From: Chloroflexota bacterium
Lineage (GTDB): Bacteria; Chloroflexota; Anaerolineae; DSLN01
Reading direction: 5' to 3'
DNA length: 24,000 nt
NCBI GenBank assembly: GCA_902812335.1
Contig: CADDZL010000003.1
Location: 1-24,000 of the forward strand
The notes beneath the pieces are model-generated. The model saw only the letters and a list, made by a program, of their open reading frames with translations, had not been told where the DNA came from and made no database searches. The position numbers and the translations under genes are program-made. Shown here piece after piece: positions 737 to 18,112 of the stretch. Position 1 is the stretch's first letter, and each line of letters starts with the position of its first letter.

Positions 737-829
737 GCCGGCAGCCGCTGATCCGACAACCGGTGGAGGCGGTAGGGGTGAAATACACCCGCAGCCGGGC
801 GGGCAGGTTGTGGAATCAGGTTTCATCTA

Positions 830-838
830 TGCTATAAT
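830..838 (+). promoter_or_regulatory. Candidate extended -10 promoter (TGCTATAAT) for the long + strand operon
   Basis: tgctataat at 830-838, 31 nt upstream of ATG 870. AAAAGGAG Shine-Dalgarno at about 856-863. No convincing -35, which extended -10 promoters tolerate. Confidence 0.4.
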
Positions 839-869
839 GGCTATCCCAGTACAAGAAAAGGAGCCGGCT

Positions 870-1748
870 ATGCAGCGTCCTTCTACTTTCTCCATTGTGG
901 CCTACGACCCGCAGCGCGGTGAGTGGGGGGTGGCAGTCCAGTCCAAGTTTCTGGCGGCAGCGGCAGTCGTGTCATGGGCGCGGGCGGCTGCGGGCGCGGT
1001 GGCGACGCAATCGTATGCCAACACAAGTTATGGCCCGCGAGCGCTGGAGTGGATGGCGCAAGGGGTTTCGGCCGAGGAAGTGGTGGCCCGATTAGTTGCC
1101 GATGATGAGGGCCGTGCCCAGCGCCAGGTCGGCGTGGTGGATGCGCAGGGGCGCGCGGCAGCCTTCACTGGCGACGGCTGTTTGCCCTGGGCCGGCCATA
1201 TCATCGGGACACACTACACTTGTCAGGGCAATATCCTGGTAGATGAGCGGACTGTGCAGGCGATGGCCGAAACGTTTGAGGCAACCAGCGGCGAACTGGC
1301 CGAACGGCTGGTGGCAGCCCTGGCTGCAGGCCAGGCAGCCGGGGGCGACCGGCGCGGACAGCAATCCGCAGGGTTATTGGTCGTGCGCGAGAACGGCGGC
1401 TATGGCGGCTTTAATGACCGGTATATTGACCTGCGGGTGGATGATGACCCCCGGCCTATCGAGAAACTGCGCCAACTCCTTGACCTTCATCATCTGTATT
1501 TCGGCCAGACACGCCCCGAAGACTGGCTGCGGATCGAGGGTGACGTCGCCCGCGACCTGCAGCAGTTAGCAGCCAGGGCCGGGTTGTACAATGGCCCGGT
1601 CCATGGTGAATATGACGCGGCGACACGGGCCGCGCTGCGGGCGCTCGTGGGGATCGAGAACCTGGAAGAGCGCTTACGCGAAGAGGATGGGTACATTGAC
1701 GCCGTGGCATTGCAGGTGCTGCACGAGCGCGTGGAGCAGGCGACATGA
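870..1748 (+). CDS. DUF1028-family Ntn-hydrolase-like protein with C-terminal peptidoglycan-binding-like repeat
   Basis: ORF 810..1748. Start moved to ATG 870 (MQRPSTFSIVAYD) behind an AAGGAG RBS. STFSIVA...GVAVQSKF...ATQSYAN...TCQGNIL...GGDRRGQQSA matches my memory of DUF1028. The C-terminus GLYNGPVHGEYDAATRAALRALVG looks like a PG_binding-type helix repeat. Confidence 0.75.
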   Translation: MQRPSTFSIVAYDPQRGEWGVAVQSKFLAAAAVVSWARAAAGAVATQSYANTSYGPRALEWMAQGVSAEEVVARLVADDEGRAQRQVGVVDAQGRAAAFTGDGCLPWAGHIIGTHYTCQGNILVDERTVQAMAETFEATSGELAERLVAALAAGQAAGGDRRGQQSAGLLVVRENGGYGGFNDRYIDLRVDDDPRPIEKLRQLLDLHHLYFGQTRPEDWLRIEGDVARDLQQLAARAGLYNGPVHGEYDAATRAALRALVGIENLEERLREEDGYIDAVALQVLHERVEQAT

Positions 1749-3091
1749 TGCTGATCACACACGGCACAGTGTGTACCTGTGGGGCTGAGCCGCAGGTGCT
1801 TGATGATGGTGCAGTTTGCATCGAGGGCGATCGGATCGCCGCGGTCGGGCCGACCACGGAACTGGCTGTGCGCTATCCGCAGGCGGAACGATTAGATGCC
1901 GCCGGTCAATTGGTCATGCCCGGCGCGATCTGTGCCCATACCCACTTCTACGGCGCGTTTGCGCGGGGGATGAGCCTGCCGGGCGAACCGCCCCGCAACT
2001 TCGTGGAGATCCTCAGGAAGCTGTGGTGGCGCCTGGACCGGGCTTTGGATGAGGAAGCCATCCGCTACTCGGCGCTCGTCTCACTGGTTGACGCCATCCG
2101 CCATGGGACAACCACGCTGATGGACCACCATGCCAGTCCGAACCAGATAGACGGGTCGCTGGATGTTATCGCCGAGGCAGTAGAGCAAGCCGGCCTGCGG
2201 GTCTGCCTGTGCTACGAGGTGACCGACCGCAACGGTGATGAAGGGGCCAAGGCGGGCATTGCTGAGAATGTCCGCTTCATTCGCCGAGTGCGAACGACAG
2301 GCACTGAGCGATTGGCGGCTTCCTTCGGATTGCATGCGTCGCTGACACTGTCGGACCGGACACTAGAGCACGCCGTGGGGGAAGCGCAAGGGCTGGGATC
2401 GGGCTTTCACATTCATGTGGCGGAAGACCAGGCCGACCAGGACGATAGTCTGCGACAGCATGGCCTGCGGGTGGCGCAGCGGTTGGAACGACAGGGCGTG
2501 CTGGGCCAGATGACGCTGGCGGCGCACTGCGTCCACGTGGACCCGGCGGAGATCACTGTCCTGGCACGCACTGGGACAAAGGTCAGCCACCAGCCGCGCA
2601 GCAATATGAACAACGCCGTCGGCACTGCACCGGTTCAGGCGCTGCTTGACGCTGGGGTCCACGTCGGCCTGGGCAACGATGGGTTCTCTAACAATATGTT
2701 CTTGGAGATGAAGGCAGCTTACCTGGTGCACAAACTGGCCGTCCGAGACCCGCGTGCGATGGGCGGTGAGACGGTGATGCGGCTGGCATACGCGGAGAAT
2801 GCCCGCATCGCCAGCCTGTTCTGGCCGGGCACAGTAGGTTCGCTGGAACCAGGGGCTTATGCCGACATCGTGCTGTTGGACTACCGGCCCTATACGCCGC
2901 TGACAGCCGGCAACCTGCCCTGGCATGTTATCTTCGGCGTGGACGGCTCACATGTGACGACCACCATCTGCGCCGGGCGCTTGCTGATGAGAGACCGCCA
3001 ACTGCTGACGCTGGACGAGGAAGCTATTGCGGCCAATGCCCGTGAGGTCGCAGGCAAGGTGTGGCGACGCTTCGCCGAGAGCGGAGACTGA
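1745..3091 (+). CDS. ssnA: SsnA-type putative aminohydrolase (amidohydrolase superfamily, COG0402 clade)
   Basis: 448 aa. PGAICAHTHFYG (HxH), ILRKLWWRLDRALDEEAIRYS, LMDHHASPN, GFHIHVAEDQ, RSNMNNAVG and GLGNDGFS line up closely with E. coli SsnA as I recall it. ATGA overlap with the upstream gene. Confidence 0.85.
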   Translation: MMLITHGTVCTCGAEPQVLDDGAVCIEGDRIAAVGPTTELAVRYPQAERLDAAGQLVMPGAICAHTHFYGAFARGMSLPGEPPRNFVEILRKLWWRLDRALDEEAIRYSALVSLVDAIRHGTTTLMDHHASPNQIDGSLDVIAEAVEQAGLRVCLCYEVTDRNGDEGAKAGIAENVRFIRRVRTTGTERLAASFGLHASLTLSDRTLEHAVGEAQGLGSGFHIHVAEDQADQDDSLRQHGLRVAQRLERQGVLGQMTLAAHCVHVDPAEITVLARTGTKVSHQPRSNMNNAVGTAPVQALLDAGVHVGLGNDGFSNNMFLEMKAAYLVHKLAVRDPRAMGGETVMRLAYAENARIASLFWPGTVGSLEPGAYADIVLLDYRPYTPLTAGNLPWHVIFGVDGSHVTTTICAGRLLMRDRQLLTLDEEAIAANAREVAGKVWRRFAESGD

Positions 3092-3098
3092 AGAGATC

Positions 3099-3761
3099 AT
3101 GCGCATCGCGATCCTCGGGGGCACTGGTAAGGAAGGCTCCGGCCTGGCACTGCGCTGGGCACACGCCGGACACGACCTGGTGATCGGCTCACGCGAACGG
3201 GCCAAGGCCGAACGCGTTGCGGCGGAACTGAACGCTGTCCTGGGCCGTGACGCCATCACCGGGCAGGAGAATCTCAGGGCAGTCGAGCAGGGCGAGGTCG
3301 CCGTCCTGACCGTGCCTTATGCTGCCCATGCGGCCACATTGGAGACTGTGCGCAAGGCGCTGGCGGGCAAGGTGTTGATTGACGTGACTGTGCCACTTGA
3401 CCCGGCCAATGTGCGTCGGGTGAAATTGCCGCCGGCCGGTTCCGCTGCTGTCGAAGCCCAGCAGCTTCTTGGGCCTGAGGTTCGGGTGGTAGCAGCATTC
3501 CATAATGTGTCCGCCGAACATCTGAAGAGGCTCGGTGACCCAATTGACTGCGACGTGCTGGTATGCGGTGATGACAGGTCTGCGAAGGAAGTCGTTATCG
3601 GGCTGGCGGCTGATGCCGGTATGCGCGCGTTCGACGCCGGCGCGCTGGCGAACGCGGCTGTGCCGGAGGGGCTGACGTCGGTGCTGATCAACATCAATGC
3701 GCGCTTCAAGATCAAGGATGCCGGCATCCGCATTACGGGCATCCCCCAGAGCAACTCATGA
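3099..3761 (+). CDS. npdG: NADPH-dependent F420 reductase (F420H2:NADP+ oxidoreductase, NpdG/Fno)
   Basis: ORF 3027..3761. Start moved to ATG 3099. MRIAILGGTGKEGSGLALRWAHAGHDLVIGSR Rossmann N-terminus and VAVLTVPY...VLIDVTVPL are typical of the NpdG family. Confidence 0.85.
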   Translation: MRIAILGGTGKEGSGLALRWAHAGHDLVIGSRERAKAERVAAELNAVLGRDAITGQENLRAVEQGEVAVLTVPYAAHAATLETVRKALAGKVLIDVTVPLDPANVRRVKLPPAGSAAVEAQQLLGPEVRVVAAFHNVSAEHLKRLGDPIDCDVLVCGDDRSAKEVVIGLAADAGMRAFDAGALANAAVPEGLTSVLININARFKIKDAGIRITGIPQSNS

Positions 3762-4522
3762 CTGATCACCCCACCATACAGATCATCGCTATTCCCGGTA
3801 TCCCGTTGATCCGAGCGGGGGACGATCTGGCGGCCATGTTGCTTGACCGGCTGATCGCTGCCGACCTGCGTTTGCAGGACGGCGATGTGCTGGTGGTCAC
3901 CTCCAAAATTGTGTCTAAAGCCGAGGGTCGGGCCGTGTGGCTGCATGATGTGGTGCCCTCGCCGCAAGCCACAGAGCTGGCAACTGTCTGCCAGAAGGAC
4001 CCACGACTGATCGAGGTGATTCTGCGCGAATCGAAGCGAGTGCTGCGCACCCGGCCGGGGCTGATCATCGTGGAGGACCGGCGCGGCTTTGTGTGCGCTA
4101 ACGCCGGAGTGGACCATTCCAACGTGGCGGGCGAGGACTGGGTATTGTGCCTGCCTGAAGACCCGGACCGCTCGGCATTGATGCTGCGGCGGCAACTCGA
4201 AGCGGTGACCGGTGCCCGCATTGGCGTGATCATCGCCGACAGTCATGGGCGGGCCTTCCGCATGGGAACAGTAGGGGTGGCCGTGGGTGTGGCCGGAGTA
4301 GCCGGCCTGCTCGACCTGCGCGGGCGGCCCGATCTGTTCGGCTATCGGCTCCAGGTGACACAAGTGGGCCTCGCCGATGAAATCGCGGCAGCCGCTTCGT
4401 TGCTGATGGGCCAGGCAGATGAGGCCCGCCCAGCGGTGCTGGTGCGCGGTATGCCCTATCCGCTGCGCGAGGGCAACGCTCAGGAGTTGGTCAGGCCACG
4501 TGAACTGGACCTGTTCCGATGA
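3758..4522 (+). CDS. cofE: Coenzyme F420-0:L-glutamate ligase (CofE / FbiB N-domain equivalent)
   Basis: 254 aa. IPGIPLIRAGDDLA, GDVLVVTSKIVSKAEGR, FVCANAGVDHSN and IIADSHGRAFRMG are CofE hallmarks. ATGA overlaps on both sides. Confidence 0.9.
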   Translation: MTDHPTIQIIAIPGIPLIRAGDDLAAMLLDRLIAADLRLQDGDVLVVTSKIVSKAEGRAVWLHDVVPSPQATELATVCQKDPRLIEVILRESKRVLRTRPGLIIVEDRRGFVCANAGVDHSNVAGEDWVLCLPEDPDRSALMLRRQLEAVTGARIGVIIADSHGRAFRMGTVGVAVGVAGVAGLLDLRGRPDLFGYRLQVTQVGLADEIAAAASLLMGQADEARPAVLVRGMPYPLREGNAQELVRPRELDLFR

Positions 4523-5415
4523 ATATCTACGTGCAGCCAATTGCTGCTTCTCGCGAATCGAAGCTGCGTCCCTACCTGGCATTAGGCGTCGGCGTTGTCA
4601 GCCTGGGTTTCTCGGCGATCTTTGTGCGCTGGGCGCACGCGCCGGGTGCCGTTACCAGTTTCTACCGCGTGGCCATTGCCGCCGCCTTGTTAGCCTGGCC
4701 CTTCTTCCGTCGGGTCCGCGCCAGGGGAGGGCTGGCACGGCGTGGGGTTCAATTCGCCGTGCTGGGCGGGTTGTTCTTTGCGGGTGATCTGACCTTGTGG
4801 ACCACAGGCGTGGTTCTCAGTGGCGCGACCAACCCCACGTTGCTGGCCAACACAGCACCGTTGTGGGTCGGATTGGGCGCATTGGTCCTCTTTCATGAGA
4901 GACTCAATGCGACGTTCTGGGTGGGTTTGCTGCTGGCGATGATCGGTGCGCTGGTTGTCCTGGGTCTCGATGCTCTGCGCGCCACGTCCCTCGGCCTGGG
5001 GACGTTCTTGGGGCTCCTGGCCGGGGTGTTCTACGGCGGCTACTTTCTGATCACCCAGCGCGGTCGTGAAACCCTTGATTCGCTGACCTACTTCTGGCCT
5101 GCCGCTGCCAGTTCGACGGCGGCTCTGCTCGTTCTAAGCCTAGCCTTGCGCCAGCCTCTGACCGGCTACCCGGCCTTCACCTACCTGAACTTCATTGCCC
5201 TGGGCCTGGTGACCCAGGTCTTTGGTTATCTGGCGATTAATTACGCTCTGGGCCACTTACCCGCTTCGCTGGTATCGCCAACGCTGCTGGGCCAACCGGT
5301 GGTGACTGCGGTTCTGGCCGGGCCGCTCCTGGGCGAGTCTCTGCAGTTGTGGCAGGTCTTGGGTGGACTGGGCGTGCTGGCCGGGATTTATATTGTCCAT
5401 CGCAGCCGATCATGA
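4519..5415 (+). CDS. EamA/DMT-superfamily transporter (about 10 TM, two EamA repeats)
   Basis: 298 aa, hydrophobic throughout with about 10 helix-length segments. The general EamA pattern (FVRWA..., [27 protein letters not shown]) is present. ATGA overlaps with cofE upstream and the nitroreductase downstream. Confidence 0.8.
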
Positions 5416-6014
5416 ATGTGACTGAAGCGATCCGATCACGCCGCTCGATCCGGCGCTACTTGCCTGAGCAGGTGCCGGACGAAGTTGTTATGAGGCTGTT
5501 AGAAGCGGCTTGCTGGGCACCATCGGCGCATAATCGCCAGCCATGGCGCTTCGCCGTTATCACCGCTGCCGTGGTCAAGGAACAGTTGGCGCGGGCAATG
5601 GGCGCGCGGCTGCGGGCCGACCTGGAACGGGACGATGCGCCATCGCAGGCGATTGAGCGGGATGTCAGCCGTTCCTTTGCCCGCATCACCGGCGCACCGG
5701 TCCTTGTGCTGGCCTGCCTGACCCTGTCCGATATGGACACCTATGCTGACGCCAAGCGTGCCCGGGCTGAGTGGGTGATGGCGGCGCAGAGCGTGGCTAT
5801 GGCAGTACAGAACCTGCTGCTCGCTACTCAGGCGGAAGGGCTGGGAGCATGTTGGATGTGTGCGCCGCTATTCTGTCCGGAGACAGTTCGTGCCGTCCTC
5901 GACCTGCCGGAGGACTGGGAGCCGCAGGCGCTGATCACGCTGGGATATCCCGCGGAGCCACCTAAGGATAAGGGACGGGAGCCGTTAACCAGCCGCGTGA
6001 TTTTTTATAGATGA
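5412..6014 (+). CDS. Nitroreductase-family protein, stand-alone homologue of the FbiB C-terminal (dehydro-F420-0 reductase) domain
   Basis: ORF 5349..6014. Start moved to ATG 5412 (ATGA overlap). [19 protein letters not shown] and GLGACWM are nitroreductase-fold motifs. The position between cofE and cofD supports an F420 biosynthetic role. Confidence 0.75.
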
Positions 6015-6940
6015 AAGTCGTGGCTTTGGCGGGGGGCGTCGGTGGGGCCAAGCTGGCCGATGGGCTGGCACGGCTTTTGCCGCCGGCTGATCTGACGATC
6101 GTCGTGAATACGGCCGACGATTTCACCTGGCATGGGCTGCATATCTCACCCGACCTGGACACGGTGATGTATACCCTGGCGGGGCTTGCCAACCCGGAGA
6201 CCGGCTGGGGCGTGGTCGGGGATGCCTTCCTGGCCCTGGACATGCTGGGGCGTTACGGGCAAGAAACCTGGTTTCATGTCGGCGACCGCGACCTGGCAAC
6301 GCACGTCCTGCGCAGCCATTTGCTACGCCAGGGTATGACGCTGACCGCAGTCACAGCTACACTGGCACGGGCGTTGGGCATAGGGGCGACACTCCTGCCC
6401 ATGAGCAACGAACGTGTGGAGACCGTGGTCGAGACCGACACGGGCGATCTGTCTTTTCAGGAGTATTTCGTCCGCTATGCCTGGCAGCCGGTGGTACGCC
6501 GCCTCCGTTGGGACGGGCTCGATGTAGCCCGGCCAGCGCCAGGCGTGCTGCCGGCGCTGCAGGCCGCGGCTGTCGTGGTGATCTGCCCTTCGAATCCCTT
6601 TGTCAGCATCGGCCCGATGCTGGCTCTGCCCGGCGTACGCGCCTCTCTCCGGGCCGCCCGGCGCGTCCTGGCCGTCTCGCCCATCGTCGGCGGCCGGGCG
6701 CTCAAGGGACCGGCGGCCAAGATGATGGCCGAACTGGGCCAACCTGTTTCCGCCGTGAGCGTCGCGCAGGGCTATGCCGATTTCCTGAATGCGTTCATTC
6801 TAGATCGAGTTGATAGCGCCGAGGTTCCCCAGGTTGAGGCTCTGGGTGTGCGGCCCTTCGTCACAGACACGATCATGCAGGACCAGGCCGGTCGCATCCG
6901 GCTGGCACAGCAGGTCCTGAAGCTGGCGGAGTCGCTGTGA
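6011..6940 (+). CDS. cofD: 2-phospho-L-lactate (or enolpyruvyl) transferase CofD/FbiA
   Basis: 309 aa. [34 protein letters not shown] and [12 protein letters not shown] are CofD signatures. Confidence 0.9.
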
Positions 6941-7542
6941 TGCGTACGACGAAGACCTGGGCCATCGTCCCGGTAAAGCCGCTGCGGCAAGCTAAAAGTC
7001 GGCTCGCGCCAGCGCTCACCGCTAACCAGCGGGCGACGTTGGGACGCTCGTTCCTGGCGCACACGCTGGATGTGCTGACCTCCGGATCAGACCTGGCCGG
7101 TGTGCTTGTGATCAGCGCGGACGCGACGGCCCTGGATCTGGCGCGTGCCAAAGGTGCTGTTGGCCTGCTGGAGACTGACCCTGGCCTGAATGCTGCACTG
7201 GCGCAGGCGACGGCCTGGGCGGTCGAGCATGGCGCTGACGCGACTCTGGTCGTGCCTGCCGATTTGCCGCTGCTCGCGCCAGAAGACATCCAGAGAGTGC
7301 TGGCATTGGCAGAGCCGATGCCAACCGTTGTCCTGGCTCCCGACCGGCGCGAGGAAGGTACGAATGCGCTCCTCAGCGCCCCGCCCGGCCTGATCCCTTA
7401 TGCCTTCGGCCCCGGCAGTTTCGCCCGCCACCGGGCGCACTGTCGGGCACGGAACGTCCCTTGTCGGGTTTATCGCTCGCCGCGCCTGGCGTTTGATGTG
7501 GATTTACCTGAAGACCTGCGCCAGTGGGTGGGCAGCTTGTAA
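6940..7542 (+). CDS. cofC: Phospholactate/phosphoenolpyruvate guanylyltransferase CofC/FbiD
   Basis: ORF 6937..7542 begins GTG-ATG. ATG 6940 overlaps the cofD stop (GTGATG). WAIVPVKPLRQAKSRLA, LVISAD and VVPADLPLL fit CofC. Confidence 0.85.
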   Translation: MRTTKTWAIVPVKPLRQAKSRLAPALTANQRATLGRSFLAHTLDVLTSGSDLAGVLVISADATALDLARAKGAVGLLETDPGLNAALAQATAWAVEHGADATLVVPADLPLLAPEDIQRVLALAEPMPTVVLAPDRREEGTNALLSAPPGLIPYAFGPGSFARHRAHCRARNVPCRVYRSPRLAFDVDLPEDLRQWVGSL

Positions 7543-7581
7543 TTTCTCTCCTCATTTGTAAGGCAGTCCAGGTGGGGGGAC

Positions 7582-7610
7582 TTGCTCCGCGCCTCTGTTC
7601 AGTGTACGAT
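7582..7610 (+). promoter_or_regulatory. Candidate internal sigma-70-like promoter (TTGCTC - 17 nt - TACGAT) ahead of the LLM/hydroxylase genes
   Basis: ttgctc at 7582-7587, exactly 17 nt, then tacgat at 7605-7610. It lies in the only sizeable intergenic gap (87 nt) of the array. A GGGAGGTGG RBS follows at about 7618-7626. Confidence 0.25.
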
Positions 7611-7629
7611 ATTGCCTTGGGAGGTGGCC

Positions 7630-8640
7630 ATGAGCGGAGACCGGGTGGCACTTTACTTGCAGGATGCTCATCCGATACGGGATGGGATGCGTTATGTGCA
7701 ATATGCCGAAGCGCGTGGCTTTGAAGCAGTCTGGCAGGCCGAGTCGCGCCTGGTGCGCGACGCCATCGTGCCGATGGCTGCCTTCGCTGCGGTCACAGAA
7801 CGGATCAAGGTCGGCTCCGGCGTGGTAAACAACTGGACGCGCAACCCTGCGCTTCTGGCCGCGACTTTTCTGACGCTCGACGATCTGGCCCCGAACCGGA
7901 TCATCTGTGGCATCGGCGCATGGTGGGACCCCCTGGCTGCCAATGTCGGCATTACCCGGTCCAGGCCGCTCACGGCCATGCGCGAGGTGGTCACGGTGGT
8001 GCGCGATCTGTTGGCGATGAAACGGGTAACCTTTCACGGCGAGTTCGTCCACGTTACCGATATCGAACTCGATGTGGTACACGGCCGGCGCGAGCCGCGC
8101 CATGTGCCCATTTACATCGGCGCGACCGGGATGCAGATGATGGAGCTGGCTGGTGAGATCGCCGATGGGGTCCTGCTCAATTACTGTGTGCCGCCGGAGT
8201 ATAATGATGCTGCGCTGGAGCATTTGGAAGCGGGAGCGCGACGGGCCGGGCGTTCACTCGATAGTCTCGACCGACCGCAGCTTGTGGTGTGCTCAGTGGA
8301 CTACGATCATGAGCGGGCGCTCGATGGCGCGCGCGAACTGCTGACGCAGTATCTGGCTCAGCAACCGCATATCGCCCAGGCCAGCGGTGTGAAGCCGGAG
8401 GTGGTGCAGGAGATTCGGGGCATCCTCGGCTGGCCGGCGACGAAGGAACAGATCCATCGGGCTATGCGGCTGGTGCCTGATGATCTGGTTGAGCGCATCA
8501 CGGCCAGCGGTACGCCAGCGGAGGCTAAGGCCAAGGTGCGCGAATATGTTGCCCACGGCTGTACCTGCCCGATTCTATACCCGCTGGGGGATGTACAACT
8601 GATGATTGATACCTTCGCCGAGGGCTATACCGCATCATGA
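7630..8640 (+). CDS. LLM-class (luciferase-like, Mer/FGD-related) F420-dependent oxidoreductase
   Basis: ORF 7582..8640. Start moved to ATG 7630 behind [54 protein letters not shown] and [14 protein letters not shown] match the TIM-barrel LLM family typical of F420 enzymes. Confidence 0.8.
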
Positions 8641-9527
8641 CTCTGCTGAATCTACGGGAATACCATCGCCCCGAGACGGTCGAGGAGGCGCTGGCGGCCC
8701 TCACCCCCGGTCCCTCTCCCAGAGCTTGGGGAGAGGGGAAGGTCGTCCCTCTGGCCGGTGGCACAGCATTGATAGGCACAGGCGGACCAGATGTCGGTGC
8801 GGTTGTAGATCTGGCTGAGCTTGACCTCGCCTGCGTTCGAGCGGACGCTGAGGCAGTCTACCTCGGCGCGATGACATCCTTGCAGATGCTGGTCGAAGCC
8901 TCGCAACTGGCCGGCCCGGCGTTAGGGATCGTCTCCCAGGCCGCGCGGCTGCAGGTCGGCCGCAACCTGCGTGTGGCGGCGACGCTGGGTGGGACGCTGG
9001 CTGTGACCGGCCCCGAAGACCCGCTTGGGGTGGTGTTATTGGCACTGGATGCCCAGGTCCAGGGGGCAGTGGGCAGTCAGCGGTGGGCGATGCCCCTGGA
9101 TGACTTTCTTGAGGAGCGCGGAAAGTATTTGGAACAGGGCGGCCTGATCACAGAAGTTATCATACCCGGAGGTGCAGCGGGGACCGTGGCTGCTTTTGCC
9201 CGCGTAGGGCGGACACCCGCCGACCGGCCGATTGTGTGTGCTGCTGCTCGCCTGGCAGTGATAGATAGGCTGTGCGCCGGGCCACGACTGGCTCTGGGCG
9301 GTGTGGCCGCCCGGCCGGTGCGTCTGCGCCAGGTGGAGGAGATGGTCTCGGGCAAGATGTTGGGGGATGACCTTTTGGCTGAGGCAGCTACGCTGGCCAG
9401 TGCCTCAGTGTCACCGCCTTCGGATTATCGGGGCAGCGCTGACTATCGGCGCGCCATGGCCGGCGTGCTGACTAAGCGCGTGCTGGCGCAGGCGGCTCAT
9501 CTGGTGCTGACCGCTGAGCCGGCATAA
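8637..9527 (+). CDS. Molybdenum-hydroxylase FAD-binding (medium) subunit, YgfM/CoxM-like
   Basis: 296 aa. [14 protein letters not shown]...[11 protein letters not shown]-terminus, ATLGGTLA, and C-terminal [17 protein letters not shown] (CO-dehydrogenase flavoprotein C-domain motif). ATGA overlap with the LLM gene. Confidence 0.85.
8712..8737. repeat. Perfect 9-bp GC-rich inverted repeat (ccctctccc / gggagaggg, 8-nt loop) inside the FAD-subunit CDS
   Basis: 8712-8720 ccctctccc, loop agagcttg, 8729-8737 gggagaggg. It encodes the PSPRAWGEG part of [13 protein letters not shown] in the variable loop before the AGGT motif. Confidence 0.7.
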
Positions 9528-9541
9528 TCGGAGCCAGGACG

Positions 9542-12500
9542 ATGGAGACAACGCTGACCGTCAACGATCGGCTGTATCGTCTTGACCTGCCGGTTTACAC
9601 ACGCCTGCTGGATGCGCTGCGCGGCCTGGGCTACTTCGGTGTGAAGCACGGCTGCGAGACGGGTGAGTGTGGTGCGTGTACGGTGTTGGTGGACGGCGTG
9701 CCGCGCAATAGTTGCGTCATGCTAGCGGCGCAGGCCGAGGGCCACGCCATCACGACAATTGAGGGGGTCGGCGGTCAGCAGGGGCGCGGCTGGCGTGGGA
9801 GTGGTGCGCTGCATCCGCTGCAACAGGCATTTGTCGAAACGGGCGCTATTCAGTGTGGCTTCTGTACGCCAGCGATGATCCTGGCAGCCAAGGCCCTGCT
9901 CGACCGACAACCGGCTCCCAGCGAAGATGAGGTGCGTGACGCGCTCTCCGGCGTTCTGTGCCGCTGCACCGGCTATTTGAAACCAGTGCAGGCTGTGCTC
10001 CGAGCCGCAGCAATCATGCGCGGCGAGGCCGTGCCGCCGTCCAATGGCGGTGAAGGGGAGCTGCCGCTGGCCAACCTGTTTGCCGCACCACAGTTCGGAG
10101 AGCGGGAAAGCCTGGGAGGTCTTGAAGGACTGCCAGGCCTGAGGAGCACGACGCAACTGAAGCCGGTGCCGACCATCGTCGTGGCGCCGCAGACCGAACC
10201 TTTCAGGGTTGTGGGCAAGCCGGAGAAGAAGGTGGATGCGCTCAAGTTGGTCCAGGGGAAGCCAGCCTTCACGGACGACTTTGAGATGCGGGGCATGCTT
10301 TATGCCAGGCTGTTGTTGTCCCCCCACGCCCACGCCCGCATCGTTCACATAGATGCCAGCCATGCCCGCGCCCTGCCTGGGGTTCACGCTGTGCTGACCT
10401 GCCAGGACCTGCCTCGCGTGGTCTTCACCACCGCCGGCCAGTCGGATCCGATCCCCGGCCCGATTGATACATTCAGCCTGGATCACAAGGTCCGCTTCGT
10501 CGGCGATCGGGTAGCGGCAGTAGCAGCCGAGACGCCGGAGATCGCGGAGCGGGCGCTGGGGTTGATCAAAGTCGAGTATGAGGTCCTGCCAGCTATCCTG
10601 AACCCCGAGGACGCGATGCAGCCGGGAGCGCCGGTGATTCATGACGAAGCGGAGTCCTGGAACATTGCCGACAAGAGCCGCAACCTGGCGGCGGTGGTCG
10701 ACTTCGAGGTTGGCGACGTAGAGGCGGGCCTCAGGCAGGCCGATTTTGTCTTCGAACAGACCTATCGTGTGCCTCAGGTGCAGCAGACGCCCATCGAGAC
10801 GCACGGTTGCATCACCTACTGGGACGAGGATGACCGGCTGGTGATCCGCACCAGCACGCAGGTCCCGTTCCACGTCAGGCGCATCCTGGCACCAGTGCTG
10901 GGGCTGCCGCCCAAGCGCATCCGCGTGGTCAAGCCACGCATCGGCGGCGGTTTCGGCTCCAAACAGGAGGTGATGATCGAGGACATCTGCGCCCATCTGA
11001 CCATTGTCACCGGCCGGCCGGTGCGGCTGGAGTACACGCGCGCCGAGGAGTTCATGTCCAGCCGGTCGCGTCACCCCATGATCATCAGGATGCGCACGGG
11101 CGTCAAGGCCGATGGCACCCTCGTTGCCAACGAGATGACGGTGCTGTCCAACACAGGCGCTTACGGCACGCACGCCATGACGGTCGCGGGTAACACCGGC
11201 CACAAGGCCATGGCACTATACAAAGCGCCGAATATCAAGTTCCATGCCGACATTGTTTACACCAACCTGCCGCCGGCTGGGGCCTTCCGGGGTTACGGTG
11301 TGCCGCAGGGCTTCGCGGCGCTCGAGCCGCACATGGAGTGGATCGCCCGCGAGTTGGGATTGGACCCGCTGGAGTTTCGGCTGAAAAACGCAGTGCGGGT
11401 CGGCGACGAGCACCCCCTGTCGCGGGCGTGGAGCGAAGGGCGCGAACCCAAACCGGAGTACATTCAGACCTGCGGGTTGGCTGATTGTGTGGCTCAGGGC
11501 GCGGCGGTAATGAAGTGGCATGAGCGCATGGGCAGCGCCGACTGGCGCACTGTCCCCGGCGCGCCCCATTTGCGACGCGGCCTGGGCGTGGCCTGCGTTA
11601 TGCAGGGGACTGCCATTCCCTACCTGGATATGGGCGCGGCCAGCATCAAGATCAATGATGACGGCTCATTCAACTTGTTGGTCGGCGCGACCGATCTGGG
11701 TACAGGTTCAGACACAGTGCTGGCCCAGATGGCCGCAGAGGTCCTGGGTTGCCCGCTGGAAGATATCATTGTGTACTCCTCCGACACCGACTTCACGCCC
11801 TTCGACAAAGGCGCGTATGCCTCCTCCACGACCTACATCTCCGGCGCGGCTGTAGTGCGGGCGGCGCAGCAAGTCGCCGAGCAGATCAAGGCGGTGGCGG
11901 CGCGGCTGCTGAGCCAACGGGGGGGGTCGGTTGCGGCCGCAGACCTGGTCCTGCACGACCGGGCAGTATGGGCACCGGACGGGCGCAGCGTGACCTTGCA
12001 GGAGGTGGCGCTGGAATCGTTACATCACACCGAGCAACACCAGATCATGGCGGTGGCTTCGTATGTGTCGCCGGAATCGCCGCCGCCCTTCGCAGCCCAA
12101 TTCGCCCAGGTGCTGGTGGACATCGAGACGGGCGAGGTGCGTGTGGAGAAGCTGGTTATGGCTGTGGACGCCGGGGTGATTGTCAACCCGGCGACGGCGT
12201 CGGGCCAGGTCGAGGGTGGGATGACGCAGGCGCTGGGCTATGCGGTGTGTGAGGAGATGTGCTACGACGAACGAGGGCGGCTTTTGACGACGCGCTTCGG
12301 CGACTATAAGGTCTTCCAGGCTGACGAGATGCCGGAACTGGAGACGATCTTTGTGGAGACTTACGAGCCATCACACCCGTTCGGCGTCAAAGCTGTCGCC
12401 GAGATCCCCATGGACGGCGTGGCACCAGCGGTGGTCAACGCCATTTATGATGCCGTGGGCGTGTGGGTGCGTGAGCTGCCAGCGACGCCGGAGCGCGTCT

Positions 12501-12553
12501 GGCGGGCACTGCGACAGAAGCAGACGCTGATGAACGCTCATGAACGCGGATAA
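9542..12553 (+). CDS. xdhD: Fused [2Fe-2S] small subunit + molybdopterin-binding large subunit of an XdhD-type molybdenum hydroxylase
   Basis: 1003 aa. The N-terminal 160 aa carry both 2Fe-2S motifs ([11 protein letters not shown]...C, QCGFCTP...CRCTGY). A linker of about 60 aa follows, then the Mo domain: [62 protein letters not shown] and KAVAEIP. The architecture and the GGGFGSKQ motif match E. coli XdhD as I recall it. GGAG RBS 8 nt upstream. Confidence 0.85.
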
Positions 12554-13349
12554 AATCTTTGAAGCCATTGTTGAGGCCGAACGCAAGGGCCAGCCGGTCG
12601 TGCTGGCGACCGTCGTGCGGGCACGCGGCTCGGTCCCGCGACACGAAGGGGCCAAGATGCTGGTCTATCCCGACGGCTCAATCTGGGGGAGCATTGGTGG
12701 CGGCGAGATGGAGTCGTGGGTCATCGGCGAGGCGCTGGCGGCGCTGCGAGAGGGCCGGCCCAGGTATGTAAACTACACGCTGGTGAATCCAGCAGAGGGT
12801 GACCCGGGCGTATGTGGGGGCGAGGTCGAGTTGTTTGTCGAGCCGCTGTTGGCAGCGCCGACGCTGCTGGTGGTGGGAGCCGGGCACGTGGGGCGGGCGG
12901 TGGCGTTTCTAGGGAAGTGGCTCGGTTTTCGCATAGTCATATATGATGACCGCCCTGACTACGTCACAGCCGACGCAGTCCCCTCCGCCGACGTGCGTCT
13001 CACCGGTCCGCTGGCTACGGCGCTCAAGGACATTGCCATCACGCCCGATACTTACATCGCGGCGGTGACCCGCTCTTATCCGATGGATGTGGAGCTATTG
13101 CGGCTGGTGCTGGATTCGCCGGCGGCTTATATTGGGCTGATCGGCAGCCGCCGGCGCGTGCAAGAGGTCTTCAAGGTATTGCGGAGTGAGGGCGTGCCTG
13201 AGGACAAGCTGATGCGGCTGCACGCGCCTATCGGCCTGGAATTGCACGCCGAGACGCCGGAGGAGATCGCCGTCAGCATTCTTGGCGAGATCATTATGTT
13301 GCGGCGGGGTGGATCGGGTAAGGCTATGAAGATGATGAATGGCACATGA
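12540..13349 (+). CDS. xdhC: XdhC/CoxI-family molybdenum cofactor insertion chaperone
   Basis: 269 aa. VLATVVRARGSVPRHEGAKMLV..GSIGGGEME, GGEVELFVEPL and a Rossmann segment LLVVGAGHVGRAV..IYDDRP. The start overlaps the xdhD-like 3' end by 14 nt. Confidence 0.85.
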   Translation: MNADKIFEAIVEAERKGQPVVLATVVRARGSVPRHEGAKMLVYPDGSIWGSIGGGEMESWVIGEALAALREGRPRYVNYTLVNPAEGDPGVCGGEVELFVEPLLAAPTLLVVGAGHVGRAVAFLGKWLGFRIVIYDDRPDYVTADAVPSADVRLTGPLATALKDIAITPDTYIAAVTRSYPMDVELLRLVLDSPAAYIGLIGSRRRVQEVFKVLRSEGVPEDKLMRLHAPIGLELHAETPEEIAVSILGEIIMLRRGGSGKAMKMMNGT

Positions 13350-14776
13350 CGATGTGGGATACCTACTACACACCGAGAACTGTTGACGAGGTCCTCGACC
13401 TGCTGGCGCGCTATGGGCGCGAAGCGCGCATTATCGCTGGCGGGACCGATCTTCTAATTGAGCTGGAACGCAAGGTCCGGCGAGTAGCCGTTCTGATTGA
13501 CATCACGCGCATTCCCGGCCTGGACGAGATCACCCTGGACGAGGCGGGCTGGATTCACCTGGGGCCGTTGGTGACGCACAACCGGGTAGTGAATTCACCC
13601 CTCATCGTCGAACGGGCCTTCCCGTTGGCGCAGGCGGCCTGGAAGGTCGGCGCGCCACAGATCCGTAATCGTGGCACCATCGCCGGCAATCTAATCACTG
13701 CCTCGCCCGCCAACGACACGATCACGCCGTTGTGGGCGTTGGACGCGCGGGTGACCTTGCTAAGCAGGCGCGGGCAGCGCACGTTGGGCTTCCCTGAGTT
13801 CTTCCAGGGAGTGCGTCGGACCGCGATGGCCGATGATGAGATGCTGATCGACATTGCCTTCCCGGCGATGGGCCGGCCTGAGCGGGGCACGTTCGGCAAG
13901 CTGACACTTCGGCAGGCGCAAGCTATCTCGGTGGTCAATATCGCTGTCATAGTAGAGTTGGATGATCACGTTGTGCGACGGGCCCGCCTGAGTTACGGCA
14001 GTGTCGCGCCGACGATTGTCCGGGCTGAGGAGGCCGAAAGATGGCTGGTTGGCAAGAGCCTGGATGACCCTGCGATTGCGCGTGCCGCGCAACTGGCGAT
14101 GGAAGCGGCGCGGCCGATTGATGACGTGCGGGTGACAGCCGAGTATCGCCGCGAAATGGTGGGTGTGATGACCGCGCGGGCCTTGCGAGCCTTGCGTGAT
14201 GGGGCTGAACGCGCCGATTGGCCCGATAGGCCGGTCATGCTTTGGGGGAAGACGGAGGGGCGCATCCGGCCCCTGCCGGGCCCAACGATGCGGCACGGCA
14301 CAGGCAGCGATGATGCCATCGAGACGCGCATCAATGGTCGGTCATATGTCGTCCGAGGGGCGAACGATAAGACGCTGCTGCGTATGCTGCGCGAGGATAT
14401 CGGATTGACGGGCACGAAGGAGGGTTGCGCTGAGGGTGAATGCGGTGCCTGTACGGTATTCCTTGACGGCATGGCAGTGATGGCATGTATGGTCGCCGCG
14501 CCCAAGGCGCATGGAGCCGAGATCACCACTGTGGAGGGGCTGGCGCAGGACGGAAAATTGCATCCGATCCAGCAGGCATTTATTGACGCGGGTGCGGTGC
14601 AGTGTGGCTATTGCACGCCGGGGTTTCTCATGGCCGGAGCAATGCTCCTGGCCGAACGGCCTCACCCGTCGCGTTGGGAGGCCGAGCAAAGCATCACGGG
14701 CAATCTGTGTCGCTGCACTGGCTACTATAGTATCCTGGCCGCGATTGAGCGGGCAGGCCGGACGGATCAGAGATAG
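13346..14776 (+). CDS. Fused FAD-binding (medium) + [2Fe-2S] (small) subunit of a second molybdenum hydroxylase
   Basis: 476 aa. Residues 1 to about 290 form the FAD domain (IIAGGTDLLIE, RNRGTIAGNL, VRVTAEYRREM). Residues from about 324 to 476 form the FeS domain ([26 protein letters not shown]). ATGA overlap with xdhC. Confidence 0.9.
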   Translation: MTMWDTYYTPRTVDEVLDLLARYGREARIIAGGTDLLIELERKVRRVAVLIDITRIPGLDEITLDEAGWIHLGPLVTHNRVVNSPLIVERAFPLAQAAWKVGAPQIRNRGTIAGNLITASPANDTITPLWALDARVTLLSRRGQRTLGFPEFFQGVRRTAMADDEMLIDIAFPAMGRPERGTFGKLTLRQAQAISVVNIAVIVELDDHVVRRARLSYGSVAPTIVRAEEAERWLVGKSLDDPAIARAAQLAMEAARPIDDVRVTAEYRREMVGVMTARALRALRDGAERADWPDRPVMLWGKTEGRIRPLPGPTMRHGTGSDDAIETRINGRSYVVRGANDKTLLRMLREDIGLTGTKEGCAEGECGACTVFLDGMAVMACMVAAPKAHGAEITTVEGLAQDGKLHPIQQAFIDAGAVQCGYCTPGFLMAGAMLLAERPHPSRWEAEQSITGNLCRCTGYYSILAAIERAGRTDQR

Positions 14777-14785
14777 GAGGCAGTT

Positions 14786-15073
14786 ATGGCTTTCCGACGC
14801 GCACCAGAACGCCCACGCCCCAAGCCCGATCCGGTGCGGCGGGCCTGTTTGGGCCTGGTCTATTTTGCGGTCCTGGCCGTCGTCGCTTACGGCCTGTTCA
14901 CGCTAATTGACAGCCGCGTGCAACTGCGGCAAGTGCTCGAACTGGGAAGCGAGATACCCGATGTGGTTGTGGCCGTTGTGGGATCGCTAGTCCTATTCGG
15001 TATCCTGCACTTGTTGGTTCTCATGGGGACCTCTATCGTTCGTGGAGGGAAAACGAATGGCACTCGGCCTTAG
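14786..15073 (+). CDS. Small hypothetical membrane protein (95 aa, basic N-terminus, two predicted TM helices)
   Basis: ATG 14786 lies 5 nt after a strong AGGAGG (14775-14780). Hydrophobic stretches [22 protein letters not shown] and [22 protein letters not shown]. Without this gene there would be a 280-nt hole in an otherwise gap-free operon. I recognise no family. Confidence 0.55.
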
Positions 15074-17255
15074 CCTGCCCCGCATTGACGCCCTGGGCAA
15101 AGTCACGGGCACAACGCCCTATCCCGGTGATTTGAACCTGCCGGGTATGCTGCACATGAAGATTTTGTTTGCCGGCCGGCCGCATGCCCGCATCCGCCGC
15201 CTCGACACGCACCGGGCAGAAGCCGTGCCTGGCGTTGTGGCCATACTCACGGCCAAGGATGTGCCCGTCAATGAGTATGGGCTGATTATTAATGACCAGC
15301 CCGTGTTGTGTGGACCTGGCAGCCGCAAGCAGGGCGCTGATGTCGTCCGCTTCATCGGTGATCAGGTGGCGCTGGTTGTGGCTGAGTCGGAGAAGGCGGC
15401 AGCGACCGCACGTGATTTGATCGAGGTAGACTACGATGATCTTCCTGTGGTCACCGATCCGGTTGTGGCGATGCGGCCGGACGCGCCGTTGCTCTTTCCG
15501 GAACTGGGCACGAATGTCCTCAAGCATTACCGTATCCGCAAAGGCGATATCGCTACCGGCTTTACCCAGGCTGATGTTGTCATCGAGAGCACCTACCGCA
15601 CGCCCTTTCAGGAGCATGCCTATCTACAGCCGGAGGCAGGCCTGGCCTACGTAGATGAGGCCGGGCGGGTGACCGTGGTAGTGGCCGGGCAGTGGACACA
15701 TGAGGACCAGGCACAGATTGCGCATGCGTTGGACCTGCCGGTGGATCAGGTGCGTGTGATCTATCCGGCTATCGGCGGCGCGTTCGGCGGGCGCGAGGAT
15801 ATGTCGGTGCAAATCGTGCTGGCGCTGGCAGCCTGGAAGCTGCGGCGCCCGGTCAAGATCGTGTGGAGCCGGGAGGAGTCCATCGTCGGCCATCACAAGC
15901 GCCACCCCATGGTGCTGCGTGCGCGCTGGGGGGCGACACGGGAGGGCAAAGTCGTCGCGGCAGAAGTAGAGGTCATTGCCGACGCCGGAGCGTATGCTTA
16001 CACCTCGACTAAAGTGCTGGGCAATACGACCCTGATGTGCACCGGGCCGTACGAAATCCCCAACGTGAAGGTAGACAGTTATGCCGTCTACACCAACAAT
16101 ATCCCCACCGGTGCCTTTCGAGGCTTTGGCGGTCCGCAGGGACTGTTTGCCGCCGAAACCCAGATGAACAAGCTGGCCGAAGCGCTGGATATGGACCCGG
16201 TTGAACTGCGGCAGCGCAACCTGTTGCGCGAAGGCAGCCTGCTCTCGGTCGGCACACCGCTGCCGCCAGGCGTGACCATCGGCCAGGTGGTGCAGGCAGC
16301 GGCGGAGGCTGGTTGGAACCTGCCCTCACCCCCGGCCACTCTCTCCAAGGCCGGCAAGAGGGGAGCAAGGGTAAAGGGTAAAGGCTTTGCCTGTGGTTTC
16401 AAGAACGTCGGCTTCAGCTTCGGCGCGCCTGAGCGTTGTTGGGCGACGGTGGAACTATACGGCGGGACCGAGATTGAGCAAGTGATTGTGCGCCACGCCG
16501 GGGCTGACGTCGGACAGGGAGCACATACGGCCATTGTCCAGATGACGGCTGAGGCTGCTGGCGTCTCTGTTGAGAAAGTGCGGTTGGTTGCCTCAGATAC
16601 GGCGGAGACAGGTGATTCAGGCAGTTCATCGGCGTCGCGCATGACCTTCATGGCGGGCAATGCCGTGCGGGGTGCGATGGAGGCGGCGCTGGCGAAGTGG
16701 CGCGATGAAGAAAGGCCCGCAGTAGCTACGTATGTGTACCGGGCGCCACCGACCACGCCTTTCGACCCGGAAACCGGCCATTCTGAACCCAACTTTGCCT
16801 ACGGCTACGTGGCGCAAGTGGCCGAAGTTGAGGTGGACACCGAGACCGGCCAGGTGCGGCTTGTCCGGGTCGTCTCTGCTCACGATGTTGGCCGGGCGGT
16901 CAATCCGCAACTGATCCAGGGTCAGATTGAGGGCGGGGTGGTTCAGGCGCAGGGCTACGCCCTCATGGAGAACCTGGTTGTGCGGGATGGCCGCATCCTC
17001 AACCCATACCTGAGCACCTATCTGATTCCTACAGTGTTGGATGTGCCGGAACGGGTTGAGTCTGTTATTTTGGAGTGCGCCGACCCACGTGGGCCCTGGG
17101 GGGTGCGCGGCATGGCCGAGATGCCCTTCCTGCCCTTAGCGCCTGCTGTCATCGCCGCAGTTCACGACGCGACCGGTGTGTGGTTCGACGCCATCCCCCT
17201 GACGCCTGAGCGAGTTCTGGCCGGTTTAAAGAGCCAGCGCTCAGCGAACGGCTGA
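15057..17255 (+). CDS. Molybdopterin-binding large subunit, xanthine-dehydrogenase-like (XdhA/PucD type)
   Basis: ORF 15042..17255. Start moved to ATG 15057, 6 nt after [35 protein letters not shown] (Glu aligned with bovine XDH E802), [10 protein letters not shown] (R880 equivalent) and GMAEMP (E1261 equivalent). Confidence 0.9.
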
Positions 17256-17274
17256 ATGCCGTTTACGGCACCTC

Positions 17275-18108: not shown

Positions 18109-18112
18109 AGCC

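Follow-up and report, generated by a model that had tools for sequence, protein, structure and literature searches.

Introduction

How is the purine ring reduced at a locus that carries ssnA and an xdhD-like gene but no gene for the reductase YgfK? This question is raised by a 24-kb stretch of DNA, hereafter the window (positions 1 to 24,000 of contig CADDZL010000003.1, assembly GCA_902812335.1), from a Chloroflexota bacterium. Here, a block of coenzyme F420 genes that ends in a gene for a luciferase-like (LLM) oxidoreductase stands between ssnA and the genes for an XdhD-like molybdenum (Mo) enzyme and its FAD subunit. In E. coli, urate is reduced to 2,8-dioxopurine ('yanthine') by XdhD-YgfM, which receives electrons from NADH by way of its FAD subunit (Li et al. 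2025, PMC12507026). The dearomatisation of yanthine falls to a different enzyme, the FMN/FAD/Fe-S reductase YgfK (PMC12507026). YgfK alone gives no turnover; ring-opened products are formed from yanthine by YgfK together with SsnA and NAD(P)H, SsnA hydrolysing the YgfK product and thereby pulling ring reduction (PMC12507026). In C. difficile the place of YgfK is taken by a PydA-type protein, UacX, and Chloroflexota clusters contain an F420-dependent luciferase-family enzyme (PF00296) instead of YgfK or UacX (PMC12507026). The swap of YgfK for an F420 enzyme in Chloroflexota is already in print as a prediction, and the value of the present locus is thus that of a clean test case and not of a discovery. 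What we add is a conserved string of F420 genes, the lack of any co-occurrence of YgfK with F420/LLM genes in 165 related loci, an LLM-ssnA pair in Bipolaricaulia, the absence from LLM of the catalytic Glu of the methylene-tetrahydropterin reductase Mer, and the presence of YgfK clusters in Chloroflexota.

The reading that we favour, with moderate confidence, is that the window represents the upstream half of an operon for the reductive degradation of purines and urate, of the anaerobic type and from a bacterium that is probably one of the Anaerolineae, and that a non-homologous F420 enzyme has displaced the ring-reducing flavoenzyme there, with hydride passing from NADPH through NpdG to F420H2 and from there through LLM to a reduced dioxopurine that is handed to SsnA. 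According to this model, the XdhD-like Mo enzyme and its YgfM-like FAD subunit would remove the C6 oxygen of urate to yield 2,8-dioxopurine. NpdG would transfer a hydride from NADPH to F420, and the Mer-like LLM would pass it from F420H2 to the electron-poor purine ring, a dearomatisation like that carried out by E. coli YgfK and C. difficile UacX. SsnA would then hydrolyse the reduced ring, pulling the unfavourable reduction forward. The genes cofC, cofD, cofE and the fbiB-C-like gene would be co-transcribed with the pathway genes, so that the cofactor is supplied alongside its user enzyme, while XdhC, YqeB and YqeC-MocA would mature the Mo cofactor. Of these steps, the substrate of LLM, the direction of its reaction and the co-transcription of the genes are those that we infer.

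An F420 gene block separates ssnA from the FAD-subunit gene

The proteins encoded in the window were classified from an open reading frame (ORF) listing and by Pfam and NCBIfam profile scans, with curated cutoffs as membership thresholds. SsnA, an amidohydrolase (1745..3091, + strand), scored 546.5 bits with NF005540 (cutoff 444) and 525.6 bits with TIGR03314 (cutoff 455.5), and is 37% identical to E. coli SsnA. It is followed on the + strand by genes encoding NpdG/Fno, the NADPH-dependent F420 reductase (3099..3761; TIGR01915, 221.3 bits, cutoff 149.8), CofE, the F420-0:L-glutamate ligase (3758..4522; TIGR01916, 294 bits, cutoff 181), CofD, the 2-phospho-L-lactate transferase (6011..6940; TIGR01819, 320 bits, cutoff 257), CofC, the guanylyltransferase of F420 biosynthesis (6937..7542; TIGR03552, 169 bits, cutoff 105), and a Mer-like LLM oxidoreductase of the F420 class (7630..8640; PF00296, 231 bits). 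Between cofE and cofD lies the gene for a stand-alone nitroreductase-fold protein that resembles the C-terminal domain of FbiB (5412..6014, +; PF00881; TIGR03553, 150 bits, below the cutoff of 250). Its start was corrected to the ATG at 5412, and from its sequence the protein is presumed to be a dehydro-F420-0 reductase. The ORF of LLM extends from 7582 to 8640; because its homologues measure 330-340 aa, we placed the real start at the ATG at 7630, which is preceded by a GGGAGG site. The LLM stop overlaps by 4 bp (8637-8640) the start of the gene for the YgfM-like FAD subunit (8637..9527, +; PF00941 (FAD_binding_5) and PF03450 (CO_deh_flav_C); 30% identity to E. coli YgfM, E 1e-14), and 14 bp beyond the end of the FAD-subunit gene begins the gene for the XdhD-like protein (9542..12553, +), a 2x[2Fe-2S]+Mo fusion of 1003 aa with Fer2, Fer2_2, Ald_Xan_dh_C and MoCoBD_1/2 domains (36% identity to XdhD, 544 bits).

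The packing of these genes is operon-like. The region 810-19477 is tiled completely by 16 co-directional genes, most of them with 4-bp overlaps, no terminator-like site was found between genes of this region, and the G+C content remains flat, at 0.63-0.65, across the F420 block. An initial annotation of this DNA had placed SsnA, the npdG-to-LLM block, the YgfM-like and XdhD-like genes and the YqeB/YqeC-MocA genes at these same positions, as the ORF listing and the Pfam/NCBIfam scans confirmed. It had also described the E. coli synteny as split open. The F420 block does sit between ssnA and the FAD subunit; the insertion that this wording implies did not stand, since the G+C content is flat and the arrangement is conserved across species, which indicates that it is old and stable. 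Flat composition and conservation across orders likewise ruled out a recent insertion or a horizontal island. The E. coli K-12 order quoted for comparison (yqeB-yqeC-mocA(ygfJ)-ygfK-ssnA-ygfM-xdhD) is correct, except that yqeB and yqeC are on the opposite strand there.

The same annotation reported that the window holds no YgfK-type subunit, and both tblastn and Pfam agreed. When E. coli YgfK, PreT and PreA were compared with the window by tblastn at E<=10, only noise was obtained (best E 0.15-0.45), which rules out a YgfK or UacX hidden within the window, and none of its ORFs has a Fer4_20 or Pyr_redox_2 Pfam match. Compared with the E. coli ygfK-ssnA-ygfM-xdhD cluster, the window thus keeps an SsnA above the equivalog cutoff, a small FAD-subunit gene directly upstream of the fused 2x[2Fe-2S]+Mo XdhD-type gene, an XdhD-specific, Glu-bearing insertion and a YqeB/YqeC/MocA maturation set. 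It differs in that YgfK is absent; that NpdG, four F420 biosynthesis genes, a transporter and LLM stand between ssnA and the FAD subunit; that YqeB (541 aa in E. coli) is split into an XdhC-like N-half and a YqeB C-half, whose genes are 4 kb apart; that YqeC and MocA, separate in E. coli, are fused; that a second xanthine dehydrogenase (XDH)-type enzyme is embedded in the cluster; and that the window is without hyuA, ygeW, ygeX, ygeY and yqeA.

The XdhD-like protein retains the XdhD-specific insertion

Profile scores placed neither subunit of the first Mo enzyme above its equivalog threshold. The XdhD-like protein reached 708.6 bits with TIGR03313 (XdhD), below the cutoff of 1101.9, and behaved alike with the XdhA models (719.5 bits, cutoff 780); the FAD subunit reached 92.8 bits with TIGR03312 (YgfM), below the cutoff of 241.5, while its architecture, its position and its 30% identity agree with YgfM. 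The XdhD-specific insertion, which is absent from XdhA, is present: WSEGREP aligns with IGEGKAP, and Glu632 corresponds to E. coli E606, a residue within the insertion that has been proposed to orient urate (PMC12507026). The stretch 'AWSEGRE' is kept in 13/13 XdhD-like orthologues of related loci. In alignments, the insertion is absent from the second Mo subunit of the window and from a third Mo type found at other loci.

The arrangement is conserved in LLM-centred loci

Searches with LLM gave 592 confirmed matches in GTDB genomes. Among the best 80 of these 592, LLM is 75-81% identical to its homologues, and nearly all are labelled as Chloroflexota (Anaerolineales, Caldilineales, Aggregatilineales, Thermoflexus, Ardenticatenia); closer matches (90-99%) are short metagenome contigs. 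The 80 LLM-centred genome loci were mapped with the window and E. coli proteins, and 38 of them have both flanks. The order ssnA-npdG-cofE-(fbiB-C)-cofD-cofC-LLM was found in 27 of the 38 fully flanked loci, and XDH-family genes in 24. The gene npdG comes after ssnA, with no recognised gene between them, in 30/30 genome loci that carry SsnA and in 13 metagenome loci, the ssnA-npdG gap being 1-2.3 kb in two loci. The FbiB-C-like gene lies between cofE and cofD in 27 of 48 loci. Where at least 7 kb upstream of LLM is available, ssnA is present in 30 of 48 loci, and where at least 9 kb downstream is available, an XdhD-like gene is present in 13 of 45; hence, LLM is seen less often with xdhD than in the company of ssnA and the F420 genes.

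In none of 84 LLM-centred loci was YgfK found within 10 kb. Moreover, the combination of ygfK with the F420 block in one locus, which the initial annotation had named as one of two cases that would speak against a replacement, was seen in 0 of 165 related loci. A PydA-type gene occurs near LLM in a single case (L057), where a PreA/DHO_dh-like gene (11089-12171, - strand; 29% identity to E. coli PreA) stands beside npdG-cofE-LLM in a locus without ssnA. In combining SsnA, XDH genes and a luciferase-family F420 enzyme with no YgfK or UacX nearby, the window resembles the Chloroflexota variant already published; that report relied on neighbourhood colouring only and does not mention the embedded npdG, cofC/D/E and fbiB-C (PMC12507026).

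Reductase types are not mixed at SsnA-centred loci

The same question was approached from SsnA in 80 metagenome loci whose SsnA is 58-69% identical to that of the window. NpdG/Cof/LLM genes stand beside SsnA in 17 of these loci, a well-covered YgfK in 8 (4 more have a partial YgfK at a contig end) and a PreA-like gene in 4; in the other 51 no recognised reductase is seen. Two reductase types were found together in 0 of the 80 loci, a suggestive sign of reductase exclusivity at SsnA loci. When 107 SsnA sequences were placed in a neighbor-joining tree, a single large clade of F420-type SsnAs from Anaerolineae was obtained. The window SsnA, together with those of L049, L091 and L133, falls outside it and is interleaved with SsnAs of the YgfK, PreA and orphan types. 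From this placement it follows that the reductase partner has been exchanged more than once.

Some contexts separate LLM from the synthesis of its cofactor. In three loci (L126, L136, L160) LLM adjoins ssnA without any cof genes, and in the closest relatives of the window (L166, LLM 90% identical; L167, 84%) LLM is followed by the genes for the FAD subunit and XDH, again without cof genes. In L091 and L144, ygeY/ygeW/yqeA/hyuA-like genes are located upstream of ssnA-npdG...LLM. In a Candidatus Bipolaricaulia metagenome-assembled genome (MAG; L168, GCA_052743395.1, 10001-19448), LLM abuts an SsnA that scores 512 bits (cutoff 444) and fills the slot of E. coli ygfK. SsnA is followed there by a threonine-synthase-like pyridoxal phosphate (PLP) enzyme, an ArgE/DapE-family M20 deacylase, a PLP enzyme, a carbamate kinase (441 bits, cutoff 358) and two acetylornithine-carbamoyltransferase-like genes. 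These downstream enzymes belong to the classes of E. coli YgeX/YgeY/YqeA/YgeW, as analogues and not as equivalogs. Overall, that LLM is linked variously to ssnA, to xdh and to F420 synthesis across lineages fits a purine-pathway enzyme that needs F420. As a side observation, the Bipolaricaulia locus resembles a compact F420-type pathway outside Chloroflexota.

LLM belongs to the F420 class and lacks the catalytic Glu of Mer

Nearly all top NCBIfam matches of LLM, among them the first 15 and all those above 50 bits, were F420-dependent LLM subfamilies, none of them at cutoff. The solved structures closest to LLM were those of Mer (E 1e-42 over ~300 residues), followed by Fgd (Fgd1), Adf and fHMAD, all of them F420 enzymes. 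With the two Mer models, LLM scored 180.4 bits against a cutoff of 348.7 (TIGR03555) and 182.9 against 276 (NF002619), that is, about half of each.

At the level of sequence, the invariant Gly-Val of the LLM motif GSGV(V/I)NNW aligns with Gly61-Val62 of Mer, the F420 backstop, which forms a non-prolyl cis-peptide in jMer. The carboxamide at position C of Mer is also kept, as an Asn. In contrast, Glu6 of Mer, at the end of beta-strand 1, aligns with the invariant Tyr of the LLM motif RVALYLQD, and Asp96 of Mer with a Trp-Trp-Asp motif. The Tyr/Glu6 correspondence was obtained as an ungapped extension of the HMMER alignment, Glu6 being placed with the jMer N-terminus, which we take to be MKFGIEF. 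Glu6 is catalytic in Mer, and its Gln variant keeps 0.4% of kcat (PMC11094777). LLM therefore shares with Mer (PDB 8QQ8, 1Z69, 1F07) the TIM-barrel fold, the backstop Gly-Val and the position-C carboxamide, and differs from it in scoring far under the Mer cutoffs and in carrying Tyr for Glu6 and Trp-Trp-Asp for Asp96. The scores below cutoff and the missing catalytic Glu ruled out LLM as a true Mer. As the backstop Gly-Val is kept and Tyr stands for the catalytic Glu6, LLM would use F420 for a substrate chemistry unlike that of Mer, and we predict it to be a hydride transferase that depends on F420 and acts on a substrate other than that of Mer. No use of tetrahydromethanopterin (H4MPT) is known from the host phylum.

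A two-part system of this kind exists in Rhodococcus, where NpdG and an F420 hydride transferase reductively dearomatise picrate and 2,4-dinitrophenol. In the Npd system (NpdG with NpdI/NpdC), as in our model, an NADPH:F420 reductase charges F420 and a hydride transferase of ~33 kDa dearomatises an electron-poor ring; the substrate, however, is nitroaromatic, and nitrite elimination follows instead of amide hydrolysis. NpdI is a member of the LLM/Mer-like family, and the likeness is one of two-part logic. The C. difficile variant parallels the window in another respect, as SsnA and XdhD are retained there and a different ring reductase stands beside SsnA. UacX itself (PydA/DHO_dh-type, ferredoxin-linked) differs from LLM in being an FMN/Fe-S enzyme of another fold that does not use F420.

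Alternative explanations

Several observations weigh against a purine-specific role of LLM. Of the 38 LLM loci with both flanks, 11 lack ssnA within 10 kb; 8 of the 38 hold F420 biosynthesis genes only, amid unrelated neighbours, and 3 hold none of these genes. Since the 8 loci that are devoid of ssnA keep F420 genes, the tightest partner of LLM is the F420 pathway and not ssnA. At the same loci (L002-L081), the identity of LLM (75-81%) exceeds that of ssnA (50-64%), npdG (45-62%) and cofD (43-57%), and its stronger conservation than that of ssnA could point to a more general role. Given that LLM is more conserved than any of its neighbours and stays with cof genes in loci without ssnA, it may have a broader role beyond purines. 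Most of the SsnAs closest to that of the window (65-69% identity) stand as orphans, and purine genes are not found within 10 kb of them. As for the lack of mixed loci in the SsnA set, ~2 were expected by chance, so that zero is modestly significant for loci that are phylogenetically non-independent. HyuA, YgeW, YgeX, YgeY and YqeA were not found in the window by homology search with the E. coli proteins. Finally, YgfK does occur in some Chloroflexota, as shown by NCBI-named YgfK proteins from Chloroflexi, Anaerolineae and Anaerolineales MAGs, and it could be encoded elsewhere in the source genome.

The neighbours of the loci that have LLM alone and of the orphan SsnAs were considered as candidate reductases or purine genes and rejected, as they proved to be unrelated genes only. 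Flanks of 10 kb or more were available for 17 of the 51 SsnA loci at which no reductase was recognised, and the genes around SsnA proved unrelated in these 17. Orphan SsnAs are surrounded by methyltransferases and by TPR, FHA, RNase J and SH3 proteins (L083, L089, L096, L100, L119 and others).

The alternative that survives best is that of an incidental neighbourhood, in which an Anaerolineae F420 biosynthesis operon carries a general or housekeeping LLM and ssnA/xdh lie nearby by chance or through loose co-regulation. It draws on the 8 loci where LLM keeps cof genes without ssnA/xdh and the 3 where it stands alone, on an LLM identity well above that of ssnA or the cof genes, and on the many orphan SsnA homologues in unrelated contexts. 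Yet npdG is tied to ssnA in 30/30 genome loci with ssnA, LLM stands without cof genes beside ssnA in four loci (L126, L136, L160, L168) and beside the FAD subunit and an xdhD-like gene in two (L166, L167), and F420 genes are never mixed with YgfK or PreA in SsnA-centred loci. We therefore regard a purely incidental neighbourhood as fairly unlikely.

We also judge it unlikely that a YgfK or UacX encoded elsewhere in the genome reduces the ring while LLM serves another step, purine or pterin, for instance as a Mer-type methylene-tetrahydropterin reductase. The visible part of the genome is 24 kb, Mer is the best family and structure match of LLM, and YgfK clusters are present in other Chloroflexota MAGs, for which reason the published claim that Chloroflexota are devoid of YgfK is too broad. 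On the other hand, LLM falls far short of the Mer cutoffs (180-183 bits against 276 and 349), an invariant Tyr is aligned with Glu6, a residue on whose mutation the kcat of Mer drops to 0.4% (PMC11094777), and YgfK lies within 10 kb of 0/84 LLM-centred loci. An example of a classical YgfK cluster was seen in a Chloroflexi MAG (L165, GCA_024232355.1, 150-23306), with carbamoyltransferases, carbamate kinase, an ABC transporter, a PLP enzyme, YgfK, an amidohydrolase and an XdhD-type enzyme.

Very unlikely is the version put forward in the initial annotation, that NpdG and LLM (NADPH to F420 to LLM) are the electron input to the XdhD/YgfM molybdoenzyme: the LLM stop does overlap the FAD-subunit start (8637-8640), and LLM, FAD-subunit and XdhD-like genes are adjacent in L166, L167 and several genome loci, but E. 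coli XdhD-YgfM needs no electron donor other than NADH, YgfK acting apart from it as a substrate reductase (PMC12507026), the XdhD-like enzyme needs no new conduit because its own FAD subunit is retained in the window, LLM has no Fe-S or flavin-relay domain while Mer, Fgd and Adf pass hydride between F420 and substrate, and an XdhD-like gene is found in 13/45 loci (at least 9 kb downstream) versus ssnA in 30/48 (at least 7 kb upstream). What stands of that proposal is the replacement itself, for which the F420 module of NpdG and LLM is the best candidate at the locus.

Significance

If LLM does reduce 2,8-dioxopurine with F420H2, the most difficult step in the anaerobic breakdown of urate would have a third solution with a mechanism of its own, beside YgfK (NAD(P)H, FMN, Fe-S) and UacX (ferredoxin-linked). 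A reduction of this kind would also add a new reaction class for F420 and give this cofactor a physiological role in the Anaerolineae, which are abundant and poorly understood members of sediments, sludge and soils. A two-protein, Fe-S-free module might be of use in engineered urate-degrading probiotics, in which the host would be required to produce F420. More tentatively, and as a conjecture that we are inclined to doubt, LLM may be the first F420H2-dependent 2,8-dioxopurine reductase, built on a remodelled methylene-pterin reductase scaffold (Tyr for Glu, new Trp-Trp). In Anaerolineae the genes for building the F420 tail would then be wired into the operon for purine fermentation, and purine dearomatisation would be a principal use of F420 there and not one client of many.

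Other genes of the window

Downstream of the XdhD-like gene, on the + strand, are the genes for an XdhC-like chaperone of Mo-cofactor insertion (12540..13349; PF02625 and PF13478; 38% identity to residues 2-259 of E. coli YqeB), for YqeB, the selenium-dependent Mo-cofactor maturation protein (17275..18108; TIGR03309, 361 bits, cutoff 220), and for a fusion of YqeC with MocA, the Mo-cofactor cytidylyltransferase (18113..19477; PF19842 and PF12804; TIGR03172, 202 bits, cutoff 73; TIGR03310, 155 bits, below the cutoff of 186). Between xdhC and yqeB (13346-17255, +) a second enzyme of the xanthine dehydrogenase family is encoded, with a FAD + [2Fe-2S] fusion subunit (13346..14776; PF00941, PF03450, PF01799 and PF00111) and a PucD/XdhA-like molybdopterin subunit (15042..17255; TIGR03196, 610 bits, below the cutoff of 784). 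This second hydroxylase may make urate from xanthine or hypoxanthine. Its type was found near LLM in 23 of the 45 loci with at least 9 kb downstream of LLM, versus 13 for the XdhD-like type. A small ORF at 14786-15073 was considered as a conserved extra gene and dropped, as a homologue was found in 0/160 related loci searched.

Many F420-type loci without an XdhD-like gene carry a third type of Mo-hydroxylase, encoded immediately upstream of ssnA (L044 1523-4291, L052 59-3820, L054 418-3964, L138 4611-8277, L136 4284-6521). It is 32-41% identical to the window enzymes and shows 'GQxLxES' at the site of the XdhD insertion. Two further genes recur in many Anaerolineae loci and are absent from the window: an ORF of ~905 aa without Pfam domain after LLM, and a DUF6909 protein (584 aa, 737 bits) whose gene separates that of the FAD-FeS subunit from that of the Mo subunit. 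Both are seen in L038 (11019-13736 and 17250-19004), and similar gaps are present in L009, L010, L017, L022, L042 and L070.

The first gene of the tiled region encodes a protein with a DUF1028 domain and, at its C-terminal end, a PG_binding_2 domain (810..1748, +; PF06267, 265 bits; PF08823). The gene is translationally coupled to ssnA through a 4-bp overlap of its stop with the start of ssnA. No counterpart was found in 160 related loci searched with the window protein. This Ntn-hydrolase-like protein might be a lineage-specific downstream hydrolase, and its membership of the purine system is uncertain.

Within the F420 block, between cofE and the fbiB-C-like gene and with a 4-bp overlap at each end, lies the gene for an EamA/DMT-family membrane transporter (4519..5415, +; PF00892, two stretches), for which the search of the 160 related loci with the window protein likewise gave no counterpart. 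No FO synthase (CofG/CofH or FbiC) was found in the window, nor among the annotated ORFs of the related loci, which were not searched directly; FO must be made by a synthase encoded elsewhere in the genome or be imported. As the cluster is without FO synthase, FO import by the EamA transporter was considered, and the transporter could import FO or a purine. From cofE to LLM (4001-8000) the AT skew falls to -0.12 to -0.23, versus ~0 across most of the window, with flat G+C; this is probably an effect of codon or amino-acid composition, a membrane protein being encoded there.

Beyond the tiled region, a class-V aminotransferase of the alanine/serine-glyoxylate type is encoded at 19634-20719 (- strand), in a Pfam family shared with ureidoglycine aminotransferase. 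It is followed at 20860-22185 (+ strand) by a second amidohydrolase of the TRZ/ATZ family, deaminase-like and 26% identical to E. coli SsnA. Both genes, at the distal end of the cluster, are possible accessories of the purine pathway.

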